DNA from: an uncultured Bacilli bacterium
GTDB taxonomy: Bacteria; Bacillota_I; Bacilli_A; RFN20; CAG-826
Direction of reading: 5' to 3'
DNA: 64,000 bases
Assembly (NCBI GenBank): GCA_905236395.1
Contig: CAJOPR010000058.1
Coordinates: 2,515 to 66,514, forward strand
Shown: positions 53,726 through 64,000 of the stretch, in pieces
How positions within the stretch are numbered: position 1 is the first letter of the stretch
How the letters are laid out: every line of letters begins with the position of its first letter
The notes under the pieces: generated by a model
The model's database searches: none
What the model was told of the DNA's origin: nothing
The model's input: the letters and a program-made list of their open reading frames with translations, nothing else
Position numbers and translations under genes: made by a program

Positions 53726-54171
53726 TGGAAACGCTATATAAACAAATAGAATCTTTAGTCAGTAATAAACTCCCGATGGTGAGTAATTTAAGCAATGTTT
53801 CAGCGTTGCTTTTTAAACTTGATAATCTCAATTGGGCGGGTTTTTATCTCGCTGATGAAAATGGCGATCTTTATTTAGGACCTTTCCAAGGCGATGTAGC
53901 GTGTAATTTCATTCCTTATGGCAGAGGTGTCTGCGGAACCGCAGTAGCGGAAAAGAAAACGATCATCGTCCCAGATGTGAATAAGTTTGATGGTCATATT
54001 GCTTGCTCCTCATTATCTAAAAGTGAGATAGTGGTGCCCATTATCAAGGATGGTTTAGTCTATGGTGTGATTGATATTGATTCACCGATATTAGATAGAT
54101 TCCATAAAGAGGAAAAAGCGTTCTTAGAAAAGGTTGCTATTTTACTCGCTGAGAACTGCTTTGGTAAATAA
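53725..54171 (+). CDS. GAF domain protein (free methionine-R-sulfoxide reductase-like)
   Basis: GFYLADENGDLYLGPFQG...CGTA pattern. About 148 aa. Confidence 0.65.
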   Translation: METLYKQIESLVSNKLPMVSNLSNVSALLFKLDNLNWAGFYLADENGDLYLGPFQGDVACNFIPYGRGVCGTAVAEKKTIIVPDVNKFDGHIACSSLSKSEIVVPIIKDGLVYGVIDIDSPILDRFHKEEKAFLEKVAILLAENCFGK

Positions 54172-54321
54172 AATTAACATTTTAAATAAGTGAGTAGAAC
54201 TTAACTTCTACTAAGTAGAATGAATATTGAATAAGTGTTATGTAAACAAAACATAACATTTTTTCTTGTCTAAATGATATTTAGATAATATAGTTATGAA
54301 AGACAAAAGGAAACTTGATTT

Positions 54322-55959
54322 ATGACAATTGGTGAAAAAATCGTTCATTTAAGAGCGACTAGTGGTATTTCCCAAGAAGAACTCGCAAAGATGCTTAAAG
54401 TATCTAGACAAGCTCTTTCTAAATGGGAAAAAGATGAATCTCAACCTCAACTAGAATCCATCAAACAATTATGTGAGATCTTTAAGATTTCCGCTGATGA
54501 ATTAATTAACGACAACGTCGTTATCCATCGTGGAAAGAAACTTAAAGTCAGTATTGGTGAAGACATTAAAACTAAATACTTCGGCACAGATGGTTTTAGA
54601 GGTGAAGCAAACAAGACATTAACAAGCGATCACGCTTATAAGATTGGTCGTTTCTTAGGTTGGTTCTACGCCAATCCTAAATATACAGGATGCAAACCTG
54701 GCTACCGTCCAAAAGTGGTTATTGGTAAAGATACCAGACGTAGTTCTTATATGCTTGAATATGCGGTGGCCGCAGGCTTATCTGCGAGTGGTGCAGATGT
54801 CGAATTATTACATGTCACAACCACACCAAGTGTTTCCTATATTGTCAGAATGGATGGTTTTGATTGTGGTGTAATGATTACCGCATCTCATAACCCATAT
54901 TACGATAATGGTATTAAGGTCATTAACTCCTCAGGAGAAAAGATTGAAGACTCAGTCGCTTTCCTCGCTGAAGCATATTTAGATGGCAATTTAAAACTCC
55001 TTGAAGTAGAAGGCGAAGATCTCCCGTTTGCTTCTAGAGGAAATATTGGCACAATTAACGATTACAGCTCTGGCCGTAACAGATATATTGGTTATTTAAT
55101 CTCTTTAGCGAGACACTCAATGAAGAGCTTAAGAATCGGTCTTGATGCCGCAAATGGTGCGTCATGGATGATTGCTAAAAGTGTCTTTGATGCCTTAGGA
55201 GCACAAACATTTATTATAAATAACCAACCTGATGGTCTTAATATTAACGTCAACGCTGGTAGCACACATATTGAACATCTCTGCAAGTTTGTAAAAGAGA
55301 ATAAATTAGATATGGGCTTTGCTTTTGATGGCGATGCTGATAGATGTTTAGCGGTTGATGAACTTGGTCATCCAGTTGATGGTGATAAGATCATGTACTT
55401 ATTAGCCAACAAACTAAAAGCGGAAGGAGCATTAGAGAAAGACACAGTGGTTACCACAATTATGTCTAACTCTGGTTTAACCAAAGCTTTAAAGGCTAAA
55501 GGTATTGAGAATGTTCAAACCAAAGTGGGTGACAGATTTGTATTTGAAAAGATGCAAAAAGAAGGTTATACACTTGGTGGTGAACAATCCGGTCATATTA
55601 TTATGAAGAAATACGCCACAACAGGTGATGGTGTCCTTACCGCAATCATGGTCACAGAAGAAGTTTTAAATAGAAAAGAATCTCTTTCTAAACTTGTTGC
55701 ACCTGTTAAGTTACTACCACAAAAACTTAGAAACGTTCGTGTTACTAATAAAGCCGCGGTCATGGATGATGCCGCTGTCTTAGCTAAGTTCAAAGAAGTA
55801 AACGATGAAATTGGTGAAAATGGTAGAGCCTCATTAAGACAAAGCGGTACTGAACCAGTGGTGAGAATCATGCTCGAATGTCCAACTGAAGAAGAATGTG
55901 ATAAATACATCGAAAAGATTTACGCAGTAATTAAGAAAAGAGGATATGTTTGTGAATAA
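54322..55959 (+). CDS. glmM: Phosphoglucosamine mutase with an N-terminal XRE-type HTH domain
   Basis: Residues 1-65 form a Cro/C1 HTH (QEELAKMLKVSRQALSKWE). Then canonical GlmM follows (KYFGTDGFRGEAN, active-site TASHNPYYDNGIK). No internal ATG precedes the mutase domain. Confidence 0.75.
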   Translation: MTIGEKIVHLRATSGISQEELAKMLKVSRQALSKWEKDESQPQLESIKQLCEIFKISADELINDNVVIHRGKKLKVSIGEDIKTKYFGTDGFRGEANKTLTSDHAYKIGRFLGWFYANPKYTGCKPGYRPKVVIGKDTRRSSYMLEYAVAAGLSASGADVELLHVTTTPSVSYIVRMDGFDCGVMITASHNPYYDNGIKVINSSGEKIEDSVAFLAEAYLDGNLKLLEVEGEDLPFASRGNIGTINDYSSGRNRYIGYLISLARHSMKSLRIGLDAANGASWMIAKSVFDALGAQTFIINNQPDGLNINVNAGSTHIEHLCKFVKENKLDMGFAFDGDADRCLAVDELGHPVDGDKIMYLLANKLKAEGALEKDTVVTTIMSNSGLTKALKAKGIENVQTKVGDRFVFEKMQKEGYTLGGEQSGHIIMKKYATTGDGVLTAIMVTEEVLNRKESLSKLVAPVKLLPQKLRNVRVTNKAAVMDDAAVLAKFKEVNDEIGENGRASLRQSGTEPVVRIMLECPTEEECDKYIEKIYAVIKKRGYVCE

Positions 55960-56614
55960 GAAAATTTTGACTAAAGAATTATTTGATTGTGATATCCCTT
56001 TCTTAAAAGAGGTGTTCGATAATGCCACATATCCTTGGGAAATTCTTCCTCAGATTAAAGAAGTGGTGGCGAAAGCCTTAAAAGAAGGCCTTCCTGGATA
56101 TCATTTATTAGAAAATGGTATTCTTGTTGGTGAGAATGTTAGCGTAGCTAAAACAGCGACAATCTTACCTCCAGCGATTATTGGAAGTGGCACAGAGATT
56201 AGACCTGGCGCTTACTTAAGAGGCAACGTCATCGTTGGTGAAAACTGTGTCTTAGGTAACTCCAGTGAATTGAAGAATTGCATTCTTCTCTATCACGCTC
56301 AAGCACCACATTATAACTACGTTGGTGATTCCATCTTGGGAAATCACGCTCATATGGGTGCTGGAAGTATCTGCTCAAATTTAAGAAGTGATGGTAAGAA
56401 TATCGTTATCCACGCTGATAAGGATCACGAAACCGGCATTAGAAAAGTCGGCGCCTTCATCGCTGATCATGCCGAAATTGGTTGTGGTGCAGTTTTAAAT
56501 CCTGGAACCATCATTGGTAAAAATACACAAGTCTATCCACTTGTAAGTGTGAGAGGCATTGTGCCAGAAAATAGCATCTATAAAGATAAAGACAATATTG
56601 TCGATAAAAGATAA
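55946..56614 (+). CDS. Left-handed beta-helix (hexapeptide repeat) acyltransferase, GlmU C-terminal-domain-like
   Basis: Hexapeptide repeats (IGENCVLGNSSEL..., IGCGAVLNPGTIIG). Overlaps the glmM stop. Confidence 0.5.
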   Translation: MFVNKKILTKELFDCDIPFLKEVFDNATYPWEILPQIKEVVAKALKEGLPGYHLLENGILVGENVSVAKTATILPPAIIGSGTEIRPGAYLRGNVIVGENCVLGNSSELKNCILLYHAQAPHYNYVGDSILGNHAHMGAGSICSNLRSDGKNIVIHADKDHETGIRKVGAFIADHAEIGCGAVLNPGTIIGKNTQVYPLVSVRGIVPENSIYKDKDNIVDKR

Positions 56615-56615
56615 G

Positions 56616-56642
56616 AAAAAGGTTGCGATTTGCAACCTTTTA
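56616..56642. terminator. Bidirectional terminator (aaaggttgc-gattt-gcaaccttt)
   Basis: Perfect 9-bp stem between convergent genes. Confidence 0.75.
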
Positions 56643-56651
56643 CTTTGTAAA

Positions 56652-57035
56652 TTATTTCTTTTTATCTCTTTTAAGATAATGATTTTTTAATGCATCGTAT
56701 GTCTCTTGGGAGATGATGTGTTCCATCGCACATGCATCTTCATAAGCGACTTCCTCAGTAACTCCAAGATCGATTAACGCTCTAGAGAGGATTTGGTGAC
56801 GGTCATATGTCTTTTCAGCGATCTCAAGTCCGCTAGGAGTGAGGTTGATTTCACCGGTATCATCGTTAACAGTGACATATCCATATGCTTTGAGCTTCTT
56901 TAAAGCGATAGATACAGATGGCTTAGAGAACTTCATAAAAGTGGCTATATCAATAGCCCTGACGAATTCTTTCTCATTTTTAAGCATGAGAATTTTCTCT
57001 AAATAATCCTCAACTGATTCTTTCTTGTTATACAT
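56652..57035 (-). CDS. DtxR/MntR family metal-dependent transcriptional regulator
   Basis: Family pattern: N-terminal wHTH (VRAIDIATFMKFSKPSVSIALKKL) and metal-binding helices. Confidence 0.7.
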   Translation of the reverse strand: MYNKKESVEDYLEKILMLKNEKEFVRAIDIATFMKFSKPSVSIALKKLKAYGYVTVNDDTGEINLTPSGLEIAEKTYDRHQILSRALIDLGVTEEVAYEDACAMEHIISQETYDALKNHYLKRDKKK

Positions 57036-57074
57036 AGGATGCTATTATTCTACATTTTTAAAGTACTAATGCAA

Positions 57075-57096
57075 GTAGTTAATGGTGACTAACTAC
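57075..57096. promoter_or_regulatory. Inverted repeat GTAGTTAA-N7-TTAACTAC in the divergent promoter region between the DtxR-like gene and the Fic gene
   Basis: Perfect 8-bp arms. A second partial repeat (tagtaactattaacta) follows. Confidence 0.4.
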
Positions 57097-57272
57097 CATA
57101 TAGTAACTATTAACTATATTTGTATATGGATAGCTTCTTTTTATTAATAAAAAGAGTGGCAAATTACTGAATTGGAATGAAAAACTAATTCGGTATTTTT
57201 GGCCAAAAAATACGGAAATGATTGAATTTATCTAAGATAAGATAGATAATTGAATCACGAGGTATTTTATAT

Positions 57273-58310
57273 ATGAAAATGTTCGACTTGAAAGGAGCGG
57301 TTTTGGGTTTAAATAAGCCTGGAATTGTTTCTTTGCTCAACAGTATTGAGCTCTACAAAGGTAAAACCTTACCTGTCGCAAAGATTAAAAAGGTTGAAGA
57401 TTTAAAACTTATAGCTCGTCGCAGTGGTGTTATTGCTAGTAATGCCATCGGAAGTGTTTATATTTCCGAAGAACGCGAAAGAGCTCTTTTTGTGAAAGGA
57501 AGTGCGCCACAATCATTACAAGAACACATGGTCAGTGGCTATAGCAACGCTTTAGATCTTATCGAAGAGAACTATAAGTTTCAACCATTAGATCGTAGTT
57601 TCATTTCCACATTACATTATTATATTTATAAGGATTATAACCCTGATTTTGGTGGTCGTTTTAAAGACTCTCAAAACTACATCCAAGAAGCGATGCCAGA
57701 TGGTTCTTTTAGAACAATCTTTGTGAGCTCCGCTCCTGAGGAAGTTTTGCCATTATTAGATAGCCTTATTTATCAGTTCAATTTATGCGCGGCTGATGAA
57801 GAATGCAATAAACTCATCCTTATCGCATGCTTCATGCTCGACTTTATGTGCATCCACCCATATAACCATGGTAATGGACGTGTCAGCCGTTTAATCCTTG
57901 AATTCTTATTAAAGAAATATGGTTATGATGTCGGCGATTACTTCGCTATCCCATATTTAATGAGAAATCACTTAGGCGAATATATCGATGCTTTTGAAGC
58001 TTCATCCAAAGGATGGCATGATAACGAAAACGATTACGAAGCATTCGTTAGTTTTATCTTAAAGAGAATCTTAGAAGCCTATCGTAAACTCGATTACATT
58101 TTAGAAGTTAACGATCTCGATGCGACAAGCGAAGAGAAAGTCTTAAAAGTGGTGGTTGATAGCGCAACACCAATTAGTAAGACTGTCGTTATCAACGTTT
58201 TATATGCAACTAGCCAAGCCACAATTGAGAAGGCTTTAGCAAAGTTATTAAAAGATGGCCGTATCCAATTAATTACCAAAGGCCGTTATTCCAAATATTT
58301 TAGAGTATAA
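57273..58310 (+). CDS. Fic/DOC family protein with a non-canonical motif HPYNHGNGRVSR
   Basis: Fic core HxFx(D/E)GNGRxxR is present, with His at the D/E position. 345 aa. Confidence 0.75.
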   Translation: MKMFDLKGAVLGLNKPGIVSLLNSIELYKGKTLPVAKIKKVEDLKLIARRSGVIASNAIGSVYISEERERALFVKGSAPQSLQEHMVSGYSNALDLIEENYKFQPLDRSFISTLHYYIYKDYNPDFGGRFKDSQNYIQEAMPDGSFRTIFVSSAPEEVLPLLDSLIYQFNLCAADEECNKLILIACFMLDFMCIHPYNHGNGRVSRLILEFLLKKYGYDVGDYFAIPYLMRNHLGEYIDAFEASSKGWHDNENDYEAFVSFILKRILEAYRKLDYILEVNDLDATSEEKVLKVVVDSATPISKTVVINVLYATSQATIEKALAKLLKDGRIQLITKGRYSKYFRV

Positions 58311-58321
58311 GGAGAAAGTTT

Positions 58322-60376
58322 ATGGCTAAATATGATGCTAAACAAATTAGAAATATTATTATCTTAGGTCACCAGAGCTCTGGTAAAACCACTTTAGTGG
58401 AATCTCTCGCTTTAGGTTGTGGCCTTATTTCCCAAAAGGGTGAAGTCGAAAGAAAAAATACCTTGTCAGACTATTCCCCAGATGAACAAAAACGTGGTGC
58501 CTCTATTCAGACAGCGGTCATCCCAATGTTCTATAAAGATCACAAGATCAATATTATTGATGTTCCTGGTAATGATGACTTCATTTCTGAAGTTATCGGT
58601 ATTGCTGGTGTCGTTAAAGGTGCTGTCTTAGTAGTGGATGCTTCCGTCGGTGTCCAAGTCGGTACAGTGAAACACTGGAACACCTTAAGAAAGAAAGGCA
58701 TTCCTACCTTCATCTTTGTTAACAAGATGGATAAAGAACAAGTTAACTTCGAAGAAGTTTTAGAAGAAATCAGAGAAAAACTTGGTAAGAACGCAATTCC
58801 ATTCTGCTACCCATTAGGCCATGAAAAAGGCTTTGATGGATTTGCAAACGTCGTTGACTTAAAAGCTCATAAGTTTGATGGTAAGGGCGAAGTCGAAGCA
58901 GAAATCTACGAAGACAAGAAAGCCAAAGTCTTTGAACTCCATAACACAATCGTTGAAGAAGTCGCAAAGACAGATGATACCCTATTAGAAAAATTCTTTA
59001 ATGGTGAACAATTCACACCTAAAGAAATCCACGATTCTTTAAGAATTGGTGTCTTGAATGGCGAATTAGTCCCAGTTGTCGTTGGTAGTGCCACAAAGAA
59101 CATTGGTATTTCCACATTATTAGACATGTTCATCGATTACTTACCAAATCCATGTGATTTGAAACCATTAGAAGCTAAAGATGAAAATGGTAAAGAAGTC
59201 GTTAGAGTCACTAGTGATAGTGAACCATTCTCCGCTTATGTGTTTAAGACAGTTGTCGATCCATATTCAGGCGTTATCAATATTATTAAAGTGTGCTCAG
59301 GTGTATTGCACGTCGGTGATGACGTGTATGTGAATGGTGCAACACAAAGAGTTAGCATGCTTTATAGCATGACCGGTAAGAAACTTGACGCCATTACCGA
59401 ATTAGGCGCTGGTGATATCGGTGCGGTTACACGTTTAGAGAAAGTTGCTTCTGGTGACACATTATCTTCTCCAAAAGCGATTACCATCTATAAACCAGTT
59501 AAATATCCAACTGCCGTTATCTTTAAAGCTATCGTTTTAGCCAATAAGAACGACGAAAGTAAGATCGGCCCAGCATTAGCTAAGATGCAACTCGAAGATC
59601 CATGTATCGAAGTAAAACGTAATAATGAAACAAAACAATTATTACTTGGTGGTGTTTCATCCTCACATATTGACTTCGTCATTGAAAAACTCAAAGGCGT
59701 TTATAAGGTTGATGTCACAACCGAACCAATGAAGATTGTCTATCGTGAATCTATCAAGAAGACCGCTGAAGGTGATGGTAGATATGTCAAACAATCCGGT
59801 GGTAGTGGTTTCTATGGTGTCGTTAAGATGAGATTCGAACCTGCTGAAGAAAGCGTCTTCGCAGAAGAAGTCTTCGGTGGTGCTGTTCCAAAGAACTACT
59901 TCCCAGCAGTTGAAAAAGGCTTCTTTGAAGCCCTCAATAGTGGCCCATTAGCGGGATTCCCAGTTATTGGTGTTAAAGGTGTATTAGTCGATGGTAAATA
60001 TCACCCAGTCGATAGTAACGAACAAGCCTTCAAGATGGCTGGTATCTTAGCCTTCAAAGATGCATATCCAAAATGCTCTCCAATTATTCTCGAACCAATT
60101 ATGAGAATTAAAGTTCATATTGAATCTAGATTCACTGGTGACGTCTTAAGTGACTTAAATACCAGAAGAGCGAGAATTCAAAACATTGAAGAAAAAGATC
60201 ATGGTAATCAAGAGATTGAAGCTCTCATTCCAGAAGCGGAAATCATTGACTACGCAACACAGCTTAAATCCATTACACAAGCTAGTGGCTTCTTCAACAG
60301 AGAATTCGTCGCATATGAAGAAGTTCCTGAATACTTGAAAGATAAAGTTATTAAGGAAAATAAGATTTCTCAATAA
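58322..60376 (+). CDS. EF-G-like translational GTPase paralog with DVPGNDDF (catalytic His replaced by Asn)
   Basis: G1 GHQSSGKTT, G3 DVPGNDDF, G4 NKMDK, G5 GSATKN. EF-G domain II-V-like C-terminal regions. Confidence 0.7.
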   Translation: MAKYDAKQIRNIIILGHQSSGKTTLVESLALGCGLISQKGEVERKNTLSDYSPDEQKRGASIQTAVIPMFYKDHKINIIDVPGNDDFISEVIGIAGVVKGAVLVVDASVGVQVGTVKHWNTLRKKGIPTFIFVNKMDKEQVNFEEVLEEIREKLGKNAIPFCYPLGHEKGFDGFANVVDLKAHKFDGKGEVEAEIYEDKKAKVFELHNTIVEEVAKTDDTLLEKFFNGEQFTPKEIHDSLRIGVLNGELVPVVVGSATKNIGISTLLDMFIDYLPNPCDLKPLEAKDENGKEVVRVTSDSEPFSAYVFKTVVDPYSGVINIIKVCSGVLHVGDDVYVNGATQRVSMLYSMTGKKLDAITELGAGDIGAVTRLEKVASGDTLSSPKAITIYKPVKYPTAVIFKAIVLANKNDESKIGPALAKMQLEDPCIEVKRNNETKQLLLGGVSSSHIDFVIEKLKGVYKVDVTTEPMKIVYRESIKKTAEGDGRYVKQSGGSGFYGVVKMRFEPAEESVFAEEVFGGAVPKNYFPAVEKGFFEALNSGPLAGFPVIGVKGVLVDGKYHPVDSNEQAFKMAGILAFKDAYPKCSPIILEPIMRIKVHIESRFTGDVLSDLNTRRARIQNIEEKDHGNQEIEALIPEAEIIDYATQLKSITQASGFFNREFVAYEEVPEYLKDKVIKENKISQ

Positions 60377-60384
60377 TAGAACAA

Positions 60385-60410
60385 GGCATCACTTCGGTGA
60401 TGCTTTTTCT
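60385..60410 (+). terminator. Terminator (gcatcac-ttcg-gtgatgc + T5)
   Basis: Perfect stem-loop. Confidence 0.75.
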
Positions 60411-60438
60411 TACCCTAGAAGTGTGATATATTTTCGTT

Positions 60439-60966
60439 ATGAAACATGTTTTTCACTTTGAAGATAAGTATTACACATTTACCTATACCGACCACAAAAG
60501 AGTAGTGGTTCGTGCAGTTTTACTTAACGAGAAAAATGAAGTCGCTATGCTCCATGTTGTCAGTGATGACAAGTTTGGACATCGCGATTGTTTAGAGCTC
60601 CCTGGGGGAGGCAAAAAGAAGGATGAAGGTTTCCATCAAGGCGTCTTAAGAGAAATCGCTGAGGAGACCGGTTTTCAGGCAAAAATCGTCAAATTCCTTG
60701 CAAAAGTTGATGATTTTTACAATTTAATCCATCGTAATAACCTTAATTATTATTATCTATGTATGGTTGATGGATATGTCGGCGAACACAAAGAAGAATA
60801 CGAAAAACGTGTTATCCAAGAACTATTATTCTTAGATATTGATGAGGCTATTAAAAGGCTTAAAGCAGTCCAAGATGATGGAGTGGGTTTACTCATCAAA
60901 CAGAGAGAATTACCGATATTAGAATTAGCAAAGGGGTACATTTATGAACATCCTATTAACAAATGA
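60439..60966 (+). CDS. NUDIX hydrolase
   Basis: Nudix box GGGKKKDEGFHQGVLREIAEETGF. Confidence 0.7.
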   Translation: MKHVFHFEDKYYTFTYTDHKRVVVRAVLLNEKNEVAMLHVVSDDKFGHRDCLELPGGGKKKDEGFHQGVLREIAEETGFQAKIVKFLAKVDDFYNLIHRNNLNYYYLCMVDGYVGEHKEEYEKRVIQELLFLDIDEAIKRLKAVQDDGVGLLIKQRELPILELAKGYIYEHPINK

Positions 60967-61657
60967 TGATGGCTATAATTCAGAAGGCATAAAAATTCTA
61001 AAAAAGAAACTAGAAAAATATGGCAATGTTTTAATCGTCGCTCCTGATTCTCCAAGAAGTGGATGCTCCGCTGCAGTAACAATTTTAGAACCTCTCCAAT
61101 TAGAGAAAGTGGAAGAGAATGTTTATAAATGTTCTGGTACACCTGTGGATTGTGTTTCTATGGGTTTAACTTGTTTTAATATGGACTTTGACCTAGTGGT
61201 TTCTGGTTGCAATAACGGATATAACATCTCTTATGACACGATGTATAGCGGCACTGTCGGTGCTTGTTTAGAAGCCGTTATGCTCAGAAAGAAAGCTTTC
61301 GCTGTTTCTGCGAAACATGGCACAGATTTTAGTGAAGTTGATGAGTATTTTGACCAAGTCTGGGAGTATATTCATAAGCATGGTTTATTAAGTGATAAAT
61401 ACTTTCTAAATATTAATTTTCCAAGAGATGCGGTAAAAGGAATACAGATCGGATCACTTTATTACCGCAAAGATGAGAACTATTTCATACATGATAAATT
61501 TGGTTATCATGCCTATCGTAGATTACAAGAAAACTTTGATGACGATAAAGGTAGCGATTGTTACTTATTTGAACATGGAATCATCTCTATCGTTCCGATG
61601 TCTAGAACCTACTATAACCCCGCTATAAAAGATAGATTAGTTCAAAAAATAAAATAA
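60944..61657 (+). CDS. surE: 5'/3'-nucleotidase SurE
   Basis: N-terminal NILLTNDDGYNSEGI. Confidence 0.8.
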   Translation: MNILLTNDDGYNSEGIKILKKKLEKYGNVLIVAPDSPRSGCSAAVTILEPLQLEKVEENVYKCSGTPVDCVSMGLTCFNMDFDLVVSGCNNGYNISYDTMYSGTVGACLEAVMLRKKAFAVSAKHGTDFSEVDEYFDQVWEYIHKHGLLSDKYFLNINFPRDAVKGIQIGSLYYRKDENYFIHDKFGYHAYRRLQENFDDDKGSDCYLFEHGIISIVPMSRTYYNPAIKDRLVQKIK

Positions 61658-61693
61658 ATTTTAAGGAATAATGATATTTTTGTTGACTATTAA

Positions 61694-61736
61694 GTTAGTT
61701 ATGACTAACATATTGTAAGGTTAGTTGCTACTAACC
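61694..61736. promoter_or_regulatory. Two inverted repeats (GTTAGT-N4-ACTAAC and GGTTAGT-N4-ACTAACC) spanning the feoA promoter and RBS, with DtxR/IdeR-like half-sites
   Basis: Both repeats are perfect. -35 TTGACT at 61683-61688. The half-site GGTTAG/CTAACC matches the IdeR/DtxR consensus halves. Confidence 0.5.
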
Positions 61737-61751
61737 AAAGGAGGAAGTACT

Positions 61752-61964
61752 ATGCCAATTATGCTTGCACCATTAAACGAAGAAGTGAGAGTAATTAGAA
61801 TTCTCGCTGATGAGAAATTGAAAAAACATTTAGAAAGCTTAGGCATTTTACCTAACTCTGTTTTAACTGTCCTTTCCACAGTGAATGGCGGTGTGGTTGT
61901 AGCAATTAAAAACGGACGTCTCGCACTCGATCATGAGATTGCGAGCAAAATACTAGTAGCGTAG
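61752..61964 (+). CDS. feoA: FeoA domain protein
   Basis: SH3-like FeoA pattern. ATG with RBS aaaggagg; the supplied ORF track starts at a TTG 27 nt upstream. Confidence 0.65.
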   Translation: MPIMLAPLNEEVRVIRILADEKLKKHLESLGILPNSVLTVLSTVNGGVVVAIKNGRLALDHEIASKILVA

Positions 61965-61978
61965 AAAGGTAGGAAGTT

Positions 61979-62218
61979 ATGCTTAAAAAACTAGTGGAAT
62001 TTAAAGTAGGCGAGACTGGCCTCATTAAAAAGGTAGAAGGAGAAGGTCGTTTAAGAAGAAGACTCTTTGATATGGGTGTCACTCCTGGTGCGACTGTATA
62101 TCTTCGTAAAAAAGCCCCGCTTGGAGATCCTCTTGAAGTGACTCTAAGAGGATATGAGTTAACACTTCGTAAGAGCGAAGCTGAACTCGTTATTTTAGAA
62201 GTGGAGGATGAAAAGTAA
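61979..62218 (+). CDS. feoA: FeoA domain protein (second copy)
   Basis: VGETGLIKKV...LRRRLFDMGVTPGATV FeoA pattern. Confidence 0.7.
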   Translation: MLKKLVEFKVGETGLIKKVEGEGRLRRRLFDMGVTPGATVYLRKKAPLGDPLEVTLRGYELTLRKSEAELVILEVEDEK

Positions 62219-64000
62219 TGAAAAGATTTGCTTTAGCGGGCAATCCTAACTGTGGTAAAACCACGTTATTTAATTCCCTCACTGGTAGTACCGCACACGT
62301 TGGCAACTGGCCAGGTGTCACGGTGGAAAAGAAAGATGGTGTTTATAAGAAATTAGAAGAGCCAATTTCAATTATTGACCTTCCAGGTATTTATTCCTTA
62401 TCACCATATACAAACGAAGAAGTAATTTCTAGAAATTACATCTTAGATGAACATCCAGACGTTGTTATCAATATCGTGGATGCTACAAACTTAGAAAGAA
62501 ACCTCTATTTAACCACTCAATTATTAGAAATTAATGTCCCACTCGTGGTGGCATTAAATATGATTGATGTCTTAAATAAAGAAGGTAGCACTGTCGATGT
62601 GAAAGCCATCGAAGAAAAACTCGGTGTTCCTGTGGTTGCTGTCTCCGCTCTTAAGGAAGATAACTTAGATGAACTCATGAAGAGAGCGTATGAAGTTAGT
62701 AAAACCCCAAGAGAAGGGAAAACCATTATCACCAACAAAGACATTCTCCACTTAGTGGGTGATGTCAATATTGCCTTTAAAGGCAAAAAAGTTGAAAATC
62801 CTTTATTCCATGCGATTAAATTAGCGGAAAATGATGAGCTTGAAGTAGCCAGTCACCCAGATTTAGTCCCAATGGTGGATGAATTTAAAAAGACATTCAA
62901 CGACGAAACATTTGGTAATGACTTTGAAGCGGTCATCGCTGATAACAGATATCATTACATCTCTGACAATTTCCACACAGTGGTTAAATTATCTAAGGAG
63001 AAGGAAGAAGAAAAAGTTGAAGGCAAGGTCAAGATGTCTAAATCTGACAAGATTGATAAGGTCCTCACTCATAGAGTGTTTGGTCTATTAATCTTCGCTG
63101 TCATCTTATTCTTCGTCTTCCATTTAACATTCGCAGAAGACTTATTCTTCATCGGTAAGAGCGGATGCTTTGAAAGCGTTGCACCTTCATTTGCAGGATC
63201 AGCTTGGGAAGGCTTGTTCTGGCATGAAGGCGGCATCAATTCACCTGGTGTTATCTTATTTAATGCCTTCGATATGACCTTTGGTTGGTTTATCGAATTA
63301 GTGGGTGGATGGATGAGTGGCGTTCCTGAATGGCTCTCTGGCTTTGTCTGCGATGGTGTCCTCTCTGGCTTATTTGCCATCTTAGGATTCTTACCACAGA
63401 TCTTAGTGTTATTCTTATTCTTCGCCATTATGGAAGATACTGGATATATGGCTCGTGTAGCCTTTATCTTAGATAGAATCTTTAGAAAATTCGGTTTATC
63501 CGGACGTGCATTCATCCCAATGATTATGGGCTTTGGTTGTTCCGTTCCTGCGATGGTCAACACCCGTACGCTTGCGGATGATAAAGAAAGAACCGCAACA
63601 ATTAGAGTTATTCCATTCTTCTCTTGCGGTGCTAAATTACCTATTCTCACCGCGATTGCCGGTGGTATCGCGATGGCCTTTGGTTTCAAACATGTCGACT
63701 TAATTACCTACGGTATGTATGTCGTTGGTGTTGTCGCAGCGATCGTGTGTGTCTTATTAATGAGAAACACCACACAACGTGGTGATGCTGCTCCATTTAT
63801 TATGGAGTTACCAGAATATCACTGGCCACAATTCAAAGCCTTGATGATTCACTTATGGGATAAAGCTAAACACTTCGTGAAGAAAGCTTTCACCATTATC
63901 TTAGCCTCCACAATCATCATCTGGTTCTTATCTAACTTTGGATGGAACTGGTCATACTTAGGCACTATGGATGGATCAATCCTTCAATCATTAGGTCAAT
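62218..64000 (+). CDS. feoB: Ferrous iron transporter FeoB (N-terminal part; continues past the window end)
   Basis: G-domain GNPNCGKTTLFN and DLPGIYSL motifs, then a multi-TM domain. TAATG overlap with feoA2. Confidence 0.85.
   Translation, partial: MKRFALAGNPNCGKTTLFNSLTGSTAHVGNWPGVTVEKKDGVYKKLEEPISIIDLPGIYSLSPYTNEEVISRNYILDEHPDVVINIVDATNLERNLYLTTQLLEINVPLVVALNMIDVLNKEGSTVDVKAIEEKLGVPVVAVSALKEDNLDELMKRAYEVSKTPREGKTIITNKDILHLVGDVNIAFKGKKVENPLFHAIKLAENDELEVASHPDLVPMVDEFKKTFNDETFGNDFEAVIADNRYHYISDNFHTVVKLSKEKEEEKVEGKVKMSKSDKIDKVLTHRVFGLLIFAVILFFVFHLTFAEDLFFIGKSGCFESVAPSFAGSAWEGLFWHEGGINSPGVILFNAFDMTFGWFIELVGGWMSGVPEWLSGFVCDGVLSGLFAILGFLPQILVLFLFFAIMEDTGYMARVAFILDRIFRKFGLSGRAFIPMIMGFGCSVPAMVNTRTLADDKERTATIRVIPFFSCGAKLPILTAIAGGIAMAFGFKHVDLITYGMYVVGVVAAIVCVLLMRNTTQRGDAAPFIMELPEYHWPQFKALMIHLWDKAKHFVKKAFTIILASTIIIWFLSNFGWNWSYLGTMDGSILQSLGQ

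Follow-up and report, generated by a model that had tools for sequence, protein, structure and literature searches.

Why should a gene for a Fic protein with an altered active site lie directly in front of a gene for a paralog of elongation factor G (EF-G) that has no catalytic histidine? The question is raised by a 64-kb stretch of DNA from an uncultured Bacilli bacterium (GenBank assembly GCA_905236395.1, contig CAJOPR010000058.1, positions 2,515 to 66,514 of the forward strand), the whole of which is called here the window; all coordinates are positions in it unless another locus is named. The two genes form a conserved pair, and the changes in the Fic active site are confined to Fic proteins that belong to such a pair. 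The explanation proposed here on the basis of the sequences, to which a probability of roughly 45% is assigned, is that the Fic protein binds a nucleotide without a metal ion and acts on the paralog encoded with it, probably covalently, in this way controlling the binding of the paralog to the ribosome.

A two-gene operon

The Fic gene, recognised from its open reading frame (ORF) and a Pfam match, occupies positions 57273–58310 of the plus strand and encodes 345 amino acids. Its TAA codon ends at 58310 and is followed by a spacer of 11 nucleotides (nt; 58311–58321, plus strand) that contains a GGAGA ribosome-binding site, after which the ATG at 58322 opens the gene of the EF-G paralog (58322–60376, plus strand), a protein of 684 amino acids and five domains, assigned to the EFG II type from its ORF and from Pfam and NCBIfam profiles. 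The short spacer with its GGAGA suggests that the genes are co-transcribed and that their translation is possibly coupled. A promoter-like site that matches the consensus (TTGAAT-17-GATAAT, 57222–57250, plus strand) lies 22 nt before the start codon of the Fic gene, in a region where promoter-like matches are no more numerous than in shuffled sequence. No terminator was seen between the two genes, and 10 nt beyond the EF-G stop codon there is a terminator-like hairpin of the intrinsic type (GCATCAC-TTCG-GTGATGC and then TTTTTCTT, 60386–60411, plus strand), a palindrome that the motif scan lists on the minus strand. The search of positions 54000–64000 gave no credible Rfam match to a riboswitch or leader RNA in or near the operon. 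The succession of promoter, Fic gene, EF-G paralog gene and terminator is best explained as a two-gene operon that forms one unit.

A preliminary description of this DNA had reported a Fic protein with the motif HPYNHGNGR beside an EF-G paralog with DVPGNDDF, and both ORFs are indeed found at the positions that it gave. It had also placed the EF-G gene 12 nt downstream, with one terminator at 60385 shared by the two genes; the adjacency and the terminator-like hairpin were recovered, and the spacer proved to be 11 nt long. The idea that the histidine of the Fic motif or the asparagine of the EF-G motif comes from a sequencing error was rejected, since both are conserved in 120 homologues each: the motif is HPYNHGNGR in 116 of the close Fic homologues and HPFNHGNGR in 4, and the G3 motif is DxPGN in 118 of the close EF-G homologues and DxPGS in 2.

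Conservation of the pair

A scan with the Fic protein as query, using one genome per GTDB species, yielded 76 loci, 59 of them with a Fic protein of the same type as that in the window and 17 with other homologues. The 59 proteins are 60–90% identical to the Fic protein of the window and come from metagenome-assembled genomes of the rumen and gut, labelled Bacilli, Erysipelotrichaceae, Bacillales or Candidatus Enteromonas. The paralog lies directly downstream of the Fic gene, at a gap of 12–43 nt, in all 57 of these loci that have downstream sequence, and an independent retrieval with EF-G as query added 25 Fic-linked metagenome loci; the co-occurrence across genomes on which the preliminary description had made its proposal depend is thus borne out as direct adjacency. 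The genes that flank the pair in the window (upstream glmM, a hexapeptide transferase gene and mntR, downstream nudix and surE) are shared by the 7 closest loci only, and in the other linked loci the neighbours are unrelated chromosomal genes, such as those for GGDEF/EAL proteins, Rex, a YggS-like protein, 5-formyltetrahydrofolate cyclo-ligase and M18 peptidase.

The pairwise distances of the Fic proteins and of the paralogs co-vary (Mantel r = 0.67, a value reached by 0 of 999 permutations), which is consistent with joint inheritance of the two genes, and in a neighbour-joining tree, calculated without bootstrap, the linked paralogs form one clade nested in a group of Asn-type proteins. No integrase or transposase was seen beside the pair when the genes of five other loci were inspected, and the EF-G paralog gave no match to the PADLOC models; on these grounds a mobile element or defence island was rejected as the setting of the pair.

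The state of the Fic motif tracks the linkage to EF-G exactly. At the position that is normally acidic, all 59 loci of this Fic type have a basic residue (His in 50, Arg in 9), which extends the earlier report of His at this position; the motif reads HP[YF][NS]HGNGR in 49 of them, HPFNHANGR in 1 and HPFNRANGR in 9. The inhibitory glutamate is likewise absent from all 58 readable helices of this type. Among the 57 linked GTDB loci, 56 are readable at the helix (that of L055 was not recovered), and all have SNxIG[NS] or a variant of it (SCAMGS, SSQIGN), with Gly for Glu. The 17 unlinked homologues, which are 31–41% identical and belong to Bacilli, Lachnospiraceae, Atopobiaceae, Parabacteroides and Dethiosulfatibacter, have no EF-G gene within 10 kb; they carry HPFxDGNGR wherever the motif can be read (16 of 16) and S[NS]xIEG wherever the helix can be read (14 of 14). 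The remodelling is therefore confined to the linked Fic proteins.

In a separate locus (L146), a distant EF-G paralog (3001–5052, 49% identity, DIPGSEEF) has a Fic homologue approximately 2.7 kb upstream (37% identity, with the AnkX-like motif HPFLDANGR); this proximity is probably coincidental.

The Fic protein

The sole Pfam match of the Fic ORF is Fic (PF02661; 7.4e-13, residues 105–213; 49.6 bits, the gathering score being 24), and the top Foldseek matches to its AlphaFold2 model, which is of medium confidence (predicted local distance difference test, pLDDT, 68), are all Fic proteins (8UQU, 4RGL, 7XUX, 3CUC, 8CIL, FICD and SoFic 3ZCN/3EQX), so that the protein belongs to the Fic/Fido superfamily. 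In a direct comparison it is matched by PDB entry 8UQU at 4.4e-38. Its layout resembles that of SoFic, with an N-terminal helical region that includes a remnant of the inhibitory helix, the Fic core and a C-terminal helical domain, presumed by analogy to be a winged helix. The PADLOC model of SoFic matches it at 1.8e-24, and it reaches 23.4 bits with the SoFic equivalog of NCBIfam (NF046030; cut-off 550), which describes a relative and not a member of that family.

The Fic motif (H195-P-Y-N-H199-G-N-G-R203-V-S-R206, 57855–57890, plus strand) retains the catalytic histidine, the GNG anion hole and both arginines, and has a histidine in place of the acidic Mg2+ ligand. It departs from HxFx(D/E)GNGRxxR, the motif of canonical AMPylating Fic proteins, since in HPYNHGNGRVSR the D/E position is occupied by His; it is also different from the motif of Doc-type Fic kinases, in which lysine stands for the second glycine (GNKR), as GNGR is present here. 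In the remnant of the inhibitory helix (S56-N-A-I-G60-S61, 57438–57455, plus strand; canonical S-N-x-I-E-G) the inhibitory glutamate is replaced by glycine, and the N-terminal (S/T)xxxE(G/N) of class II auto-inhibited Fic proteins is consequently missing.

The flap is the target-docking element of Fic enzymes. In the protein of the window, residues 135–151 (57675–57725, plus strand) are predicted to form a β-hairpin, with model strands at 136–140 and 146–150, and presumably correspond to it, a role assigned from general knowledge of Fic structures. They are nearly invariant among 31 orthologues, the invariant columns being N135, I137, Q138, E139, D143, G144, F146 and T148–V151. Across the alignment of the EF-G-linked Fic proteins, the catalytic histidine, the GNG, R203 and R206 do not vary either, which suggests that the active site is under purifying selection. 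The best explanation of these sequence features is that the Fic protein descends from a class II SoFic-like AMPylator, whose active site would have been remodelled in a coordinated way.

The EF-G paralog

The paralog belongs to the EF-G/EF2 family, with matches to GTP_EFTU, EF-G_D2, EFG_III, EFG_IV and EFG_C that are all above the Pfam threshold. The signatures of EFG II are Gly16 and Leu25 in the P-loop and a G2 motif relaxed to xxxSx, together with retained G1, G3, G4 and G5 motifs (Margus 2011, PMC3150367). The paralog has a P-loop with both type-I signature residues (G16-HQSSGKTT-L25, 58367–58396, plus strand), a G2/switch I region that reads RGASIQT where RGITI is canonical, with an EFG II-like Ser at the Thr position (58493–58513, plus strand), DVPG in G3, NKMD in G4 (58721–58732, plus strand) and GSAT in G5 (59084–59095, plus strand), and is placed in EFG II on this basis, with the caveat that its phmmer score is nearer to Thermus thermophilus EF-G (504 bits) than to the T. 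thermophilus EF-G-2 of 1WDT (414 bits). The NKMD and GSAT motifs show that the elements predicted to bind the guanine nucleotide are retained. In the canonical P-loop, AHIDAGKT, the Asp binds a monovalent cation (Atkinson 2015); the paralog has Ser at this position. The G3/switch II region (D-V-P-G-N84-D-D-F, residues 80–87, 58559–58582, plus strand) has an asparagine, N84, that HMMER aligns with the catalytic histidine of T. thermophilus EF-G (IIDTPGHVDF).

The profile scores are in keeping with an accessory factor. The paralog scores 787 bits against a cut-off of 583 with NF009381 (PRK12740.1-5, an ‘elongation factor G’ subfamily of NCBIfam), and falls below the cut-off with canonical EF-G/FusA (TIGR00484, 595.5 bits against 659.4) and with the EF-G2 equivalogs (NF009377, 513 against 890; NF058620 of Bacteroides, 538 against 1000). 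It also falls below that of the tetracycline ribosomal protection model (NF012153, 311 against 775), and the NCBIfam scores rule out that it is a tetracycline protection protein, RF3, LepA or BipA. The hallmarks of FusA are absent, given that the motifs are DVPGN and RGASI and that its neighbours are Fic and a Nudix gene in place of rpsG and tuf. Genomes with a single EF-G copy always carry EFG I (Margus 2011, PMC3150367). Because of this rule and the EFG II assignment, a canonical fusA would be expected elsewhere in the genome, the paralog being accessory; no second EF-G was found in the window or in any of the fetched loci, which reach up to 10 kb to either side. The paralog is unlikely to be the only fusA of the genome, because it fails the TIGR00484 cut-off and never lies in a str-operon context.

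The missing histidine has a wider distribution than the pair. When 1.84 billion cluster representatives were searched in full, none proved more than 50% identical to the paralog. The motif was scorable in 148 of the best 150 representatives, and in these DxPG is followed by Tyr in 61 cases, by Phe in 31, by Asp in 10, by Ser in 9 and by Asn, Leu and His in 7 each. In M. smegmatis (Mycobacterium smegmatis), according to a recent preprint, EF-G2 has Tyr at the His position and no GTPase activity that depends on the ribosome, and the change H88Y nearly abolishes the GTPase activity of EF-G1. Asparagine is present at the position of N84 in all 57 linked loci with a readable paralog and in an unlinked sister group of approximately 120 proteins, 49–58% identical to the paralog of the window, which all have DxPGNDD[FY]. 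In the six lineages of this group that were inspected, the gene stands alone, with no Fic gene within 5–6 kb, and is never in a str-operon context. Because Asn is fixed in sister lineages without Fic, Asn84 and the diverged G2 predate the pairing and are independent of Fic; a tie between the change from His to Asn and the Fic protein was rejected, with Asn fixed in the unlinked sisters and residues other than His dominant in the wider family.

These results divide the claims of the preliminary description. The replacement of the DxPGH histidine by Asn and the diverged G2 are confirmed by the alignment of N84 and by RGASI in place of RGITI, and the phylogenetic placement that it called for led to EFG II and away from canonical EF-G, the EF-G2 equivalogs and tetracycline protection. 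The change from His to Asn, presented there as a distinguishing feature that would lose this value if it were common in an established family, is just that (His in 7 of 148, Asn fixed in approximately 120 sister proteins). Of its interpretation as a whole, the pairing stands as real and specific, and the lack of the histidine becomes a trait of the family and not a consequence of the pairing.

Linked and unlinked paralogs are fixed for different residues at 43 positions, mostly in domains IV–V, and the hydroxyl residues T310, T605, T614 and T646 are specific to the linked ones. An attempt to deduce the acceptor residue from these positions was not decisive.

One-way dependence and alternative partners

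The reverse comparison, which was based on 80 metagenome loci fetched with the paralog as sole query, considered the clade with a paralog identity of at least 67%, in which 33 loci have enough upstream sequence. The slot upstream of the paralog is occupied by a Fic gene of the His/Arg type in 25 of them, by an ORF of 85 amino acids in 8, and by neither in 0. This ORF is 75–88% identical within the set, ends approximately 20–45 nt before the paralog and corresponds to Pfam DUF6275 (PF19791; 26–34 bits against a gathering score of 22.6) and also to phrog_918, an assignment that agrees with the precomputed annotation of a 718-kb contig. A protein look-up added 2 loci with DUF6275 and the paralog. 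DUF6275 ORFs are located in the Fic slot at 2716–2973 of L094, 2723–2980 of L102, 2683–2943 of L113 and 2222–2479 of L170, and also in L095, L101, L111, L115, L141 and L171. Neither tblastn nor blastp found a Fic remnant or similarity to Fic in the DUF6275 loci, and the literature searched contains no mention of DUF6275. Of the 120 close EF-G homologues, 37 are of the DUF6275-linked type. The DUF6275-linked paralogs fall into three groups, each nearest to Fic-linked paralogs, which reflects either a repeated swap of the upstream gene or the presence of two operons per genome whose paralogs are homogenised by gene conversion. The NCBI accession blocks of the Fic–EF-G and the DUF6275–EF-G operons differ, which favours neither possibility.

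A third kind of partner appears in a sister clade (DAPGND[DS]F, 54–56% identity), in which a P-loop kinase-like gene occupies the slot in all 8 informative loci. It encodes 183–213 amino acids, ends 9–22 nt before the paralog (2422–2973 of L137, 2390–2977 of L130, 2416–2976 of L132 and 2432–2983 of L139; also in L128, L129, L138 and L143) and has weak matches to AAA_18, Zeta_toxin and AAA_33, its best solved relative being the ‘putative kinase’ of PDB 2RHM (3.8e-12).

The dependence between the two genes of the pair is one-way: the Fic protein of the His/Arg type is never seen without the paralog, and the paralog has other partners or none. Such a pattern is expected if Fic acts on the paralog.

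Other genes were observed near members of the family. An ORF of approximately 98 amino acids, rich in Cys (...CANCTKPxFCxDC) and without a Pfam match, lies approximately 150 nt upstream of paralogs of the DAPGADEM type (2556–2843 of L148, 1759–2055 of L152, 2549–2845 of L156 and 2544–2840 of L166). In L170, a gene for a RimK-like ATP-grasp protein, of a family that modifies ribosomal protein S6 (1048–1923, minus strand), and a pseudouridine synthase gene are found just upstream of the DUF6275–EF-G pair, on the opposite strand.

Proposed mechanism and rival explanations

In the mechanism proposed, the paralog would be an accessory factor of EFG II type and not the housekeeping translocase. It keeps the guanine-nucleotide elements (G1, G3 DxPG, G4 NKMD and G5 GSAT) and has neither the catalytic His nor RGITI nor the P-loop Asp, and by analogy with M. 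smegmatis EF-G2 it is most likely a ribosome-binding protein whose hydrolysis of GTP the ribosome stimulates little or not at all. The ancestor of the Fic protein would have lost the auto-inhibitory Glu and exchanged the acidic Mg2+ ligand for His or Arg, with the catalytic His, the anion hole, both arginines and the flap being kept. The nearest precedent for such an exchange is BepC, in which the Lys of HxFxKGNGRxxR contacts the α and β phosphates in place of Mg2+ (PMC7842960); if His or Arg stands in for the metal in a similar way, the Fic protein may bind its nucleotide without Mg2+. It would then modify the paralog, most likely covalently, and thereby turn ribosome binding on or off. We infer nucleotide binding, catalysis, the paralog as target and a physiological role from what the loci display directly, that is, the anatomy of the operon, the conserved pairing, the one-way dependence and the coordinated changes in the motifs. 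The conserved operon and the tracking of the motif fit a modifier-plus-GTPase pair, a translational GTPase, EF-Tu, is the target of the Fic-fold kinase Doc, and the P-loop kinase-like partner of the sister clade, being another ATP-using fold, speaks for the same explanation.

Several points weigh against this mechanism. No enzymatic activity has been found for BepC, whose known function is protein binding (PMC7842960); its Fic domain acts in this manner even though its motif is ‘well conserved’, so that conservation of a motif is no proof of catalysis. The occurrence of DUF6275 in the Fic slot suggests that the partner may not have to be an enzyme. The pairing is limited to one clade of uncultured Bacilli, and membership of an operon does not by itself name a target. 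Linked paralogs differ consistently from unlinked ones mostly in domains IV–V and not in the switch regions, where Fic enzymes usually modify GTPases. Lastly, the AlphaFold2 model is of poor quality (pLDDT below 50) in the loop of the active site and in the inhibitory helix, and since it is disordered at the active site the mechanism was deduced without it.

It is unlikely, although not without precedent, that the Fic protein is a de-repressed toxin derived from SoFic that hits EF-Tu, canonical EF-G or the ribosome, with the paralog as a decoy or antitoxin, or as a resistant factor that sustains slow translation. The closest family, SoFic, is an abortive-infection toxin (the PADLOC match at 1.8e-24), and downstream of Sofic there is a gene for an antitoxin, AS1 (PMC12249575). 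Fic toxins are normally de-repressed when the inhibitory Glu is lost, Doc targets EF-Tu, and Fic2 of Campylobacter fetus, with its degenerate motif, disrupts ribosome function; Fic proteins and Zeta-like kinases are, in addition, classical toxin folds, and the slot gene of the sister clade has its weak Zeta_toxin match. However, a GTPase of 684 amino acids that also stands alone in sister clades was not invented as an antitoxin, the paralog matches no PADLOC model, and the chromosomal context is ordinary, with no signs of a mobile element or defence island and with distances that fit joint inheritance. The loss of the Mg2+ ligand, for its part, speaks against an AMPylator that is simply hyperactive.

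BepC, in which the D/E position is basic and proteins are bound without catalysis, is also the precedent for a Fic protein that would be a pseudoenzyme or adaptor, which associates at a fixed ratio with the paralog or its nucleotide and, for instance, keeps the paralog off the ribosome or brings it there, or else a transcriptional regulator of the operon that works through its C-terminal domain, the presumed winged helix. The tolerance of the D/E position for both His and Arg, the substitution by the small DUF6275 protein and the 11-nt spacing, which suits proteins made in fixed proportion, agree with such a role, as does the structural neighbour Fic2 of Coxiella (8CIL), whose activity is reported to depend on DNA binding. 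Scaffolding alone hardly explains why the catalytic His, the anion hole, both phosphate-binding arginines and the flap are kept in approximately 80 orthologues at a divergence of up to 46%, and a purely non-catalytic role is for this reason considered improbable. Still less credit, to the point of being very improbable, is given to the absence of any functional link, with a SoFic-like gene that came to lie upstream of the paralog by insertion in one ancestor and has since remained in a tight operon. The pairing does occur in a single clade with apparently one origin, the paralog does not need Fic, and Asn84 is older than the pairing; but adjacency persists in all 57 species loci and in 25 metagenome loci despite turnover of both flanks, the remodelling of the active site correlates perfectly with linkage, and the slot is never empty in the clade (25 Fic, 8 DUF6275, 0 with neither).

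The proposal of a Fic protein that acts on its own paralog can be widened into a more speculative and rather doubtful one, in which the His-less paralogs of uncultured Firmicutes of the gut and rumen would be hubs with interchangeable upstream partners, namely the remodelled, possibly metal-independent Fic, the P-loop kinase-like protein and DUF6275, that switch ribosome binding covalently or physically. If this were true, the Fic protein would be the first with a co-encoded GTPase of the EF-G family as dedicated substrate, and the first in which His or Arg supports catalysis instead of Mg2+.

Neighbouring genes

Upstream of the operon, the window contains a phosphoglucosamine mutase gene (54322–55959; PGM_PMM I–IV) with a fused N-terminal helix-turn-helix domain of the XRE type, and, overlapping it by 14 nt, a gene for a hexapeptide-repeat protein of 222 amino acids (55946–56614) that resembles only the acetyltransferase half of GlmU. 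They are followed by a metal repressor gene of the MntR/DtxR family (56652–57035, minus strand), divergent from the Fic gene, an arrangement shared by the closest relatives. A repressor of the same family is encoded three genes upstream of an unlinked paralog (1088–1456 of L079; 2966–3334 of L080), and genes for a heavy-metal ATPase and for ArsR/CsoR flank further unlinked paralogs (L082–L085). These metal genes may indicate a context of metal stress or be a coincidence.

Downstream of the paralog, in the window (60439–61657) and in approximately 17 related loci, there is a gene for a SurE 5'/3'-nucleotidase, either directly (10 loci) or beyond a Nudix hydrolase gene (the window and 7 loci). 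The position of two nucleotide-hydrolysing enzymes beside a putative nucleotidyl transferase may or may not matter.

Significance of the pair

The two best-studied EFG II paralogs slow translation, or let it run more cheaply under stress. Paralogs of this kind are widespread and their role is mostly unknown (Atkinson 2015). Each component of the pair is already of a known kind, the one a His-less EFG II paralog and the other a Fic protein with a non-canonical motif; neither a conserved operon of Fic and an EF-G paralog nor the DUF6275 and kinase-like partners were found in the literature searched, and the pairing suggests a previously undescribed control of spare copies of EF-G. A conserved partner gene provides an experimental handle on EFG II, since it offers a candidate regulator, a candidate chemistry and a defined pair of proteins. 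The approximately 80 natural orthologues that have neither the inhibitory Glu nor the Mg2+ ligand, and retain all other catalytic elements, also amount to a natural experiment that asks if the metal can be replaced by a basic side chain, which BepC had raised as a question and left open. If the pairing has no function, what remains is an ordinary EFG II paralog beside an odd Fic gene in one uncultured lineage.

Comparison with known systems

The closest counterparts of the paralog are the EFG II/EF-G2 proteins (T. thermophilus EF-G-2, 1WDT; M. smegmatis EF-G2, 9K0Z/9K10; Bacteroides thetaiotaomicron EF-G2), with which it shares the five domains, Gly16 and Leu25, the relaxed G2 with Ser, the conserved DxPG, NKxD and GSAx, and a location outside the str operon. 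M. smegmatis EF-G2 resembles it further in the lack of the catalytic His, with Tyr there and Asn in the paralog; the T. thermophilus protein probably has Tyr there as well. Unlike these proteins, the paralog has Asn and not Tyr or Phe, belongs to a DxPGNDD[FY] subgroup that is specific to Bacilli and at most 50% identical to any other cluster, does not reach the cut-offs of NF009377 and NF058620, and is linked in an operon to Fic, a link reported for no EF-G2 in the literature searched.

The Fic protein is most similar to the SoFic-type class II AMPylators (SoFic of Shewanella, 3EQX/3ZCN; the Bordetella protein, 8UQU; the Sofic defence toxin) in length, order of domains and fold, and it has in common with its canonical relatives the block WHDNENDY. 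It differs from SoFic in the Gly that replaces the inhibitory Glu and in the His or Arg that replaces the Mg2+-binding Asp; moreover, SoFic stands alone or has a small downstream antitoxin, whereas this Fic is always paired with the EF-G paralog. The FIC domain of Bartonella BepC (PDB 4WGJ) is alike in having a basic residue for the acidic one in an otherwise conserved motif. BepC, however, is secreted as an effector, has FIC-OB-BID architecture, acts on GEF-H1 of the host and has Lys at the D/E position, while the Fic protein described here has His or Arg, stays in the cell, bears no sequence relationship to the FIC-OB-BID architecture and would have a translational GTPase as its partner; the likeness between the two would be purely functional.

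Doc of the Phd-Doc system is comparable as an enzyme with the Fic fold and an altered motif that acts on a translational GTPase, but its motif is GNKR, in contrast to GNGR, and it is a small toxin with an upstream antitoxin. A similar arrangement of genes is known from EarP or EpmA and EF-P, in which the gene of a modifying enzyme adjoins that of its translation factor, with enzyme families and chemistry that differ from those of the Fic pair.

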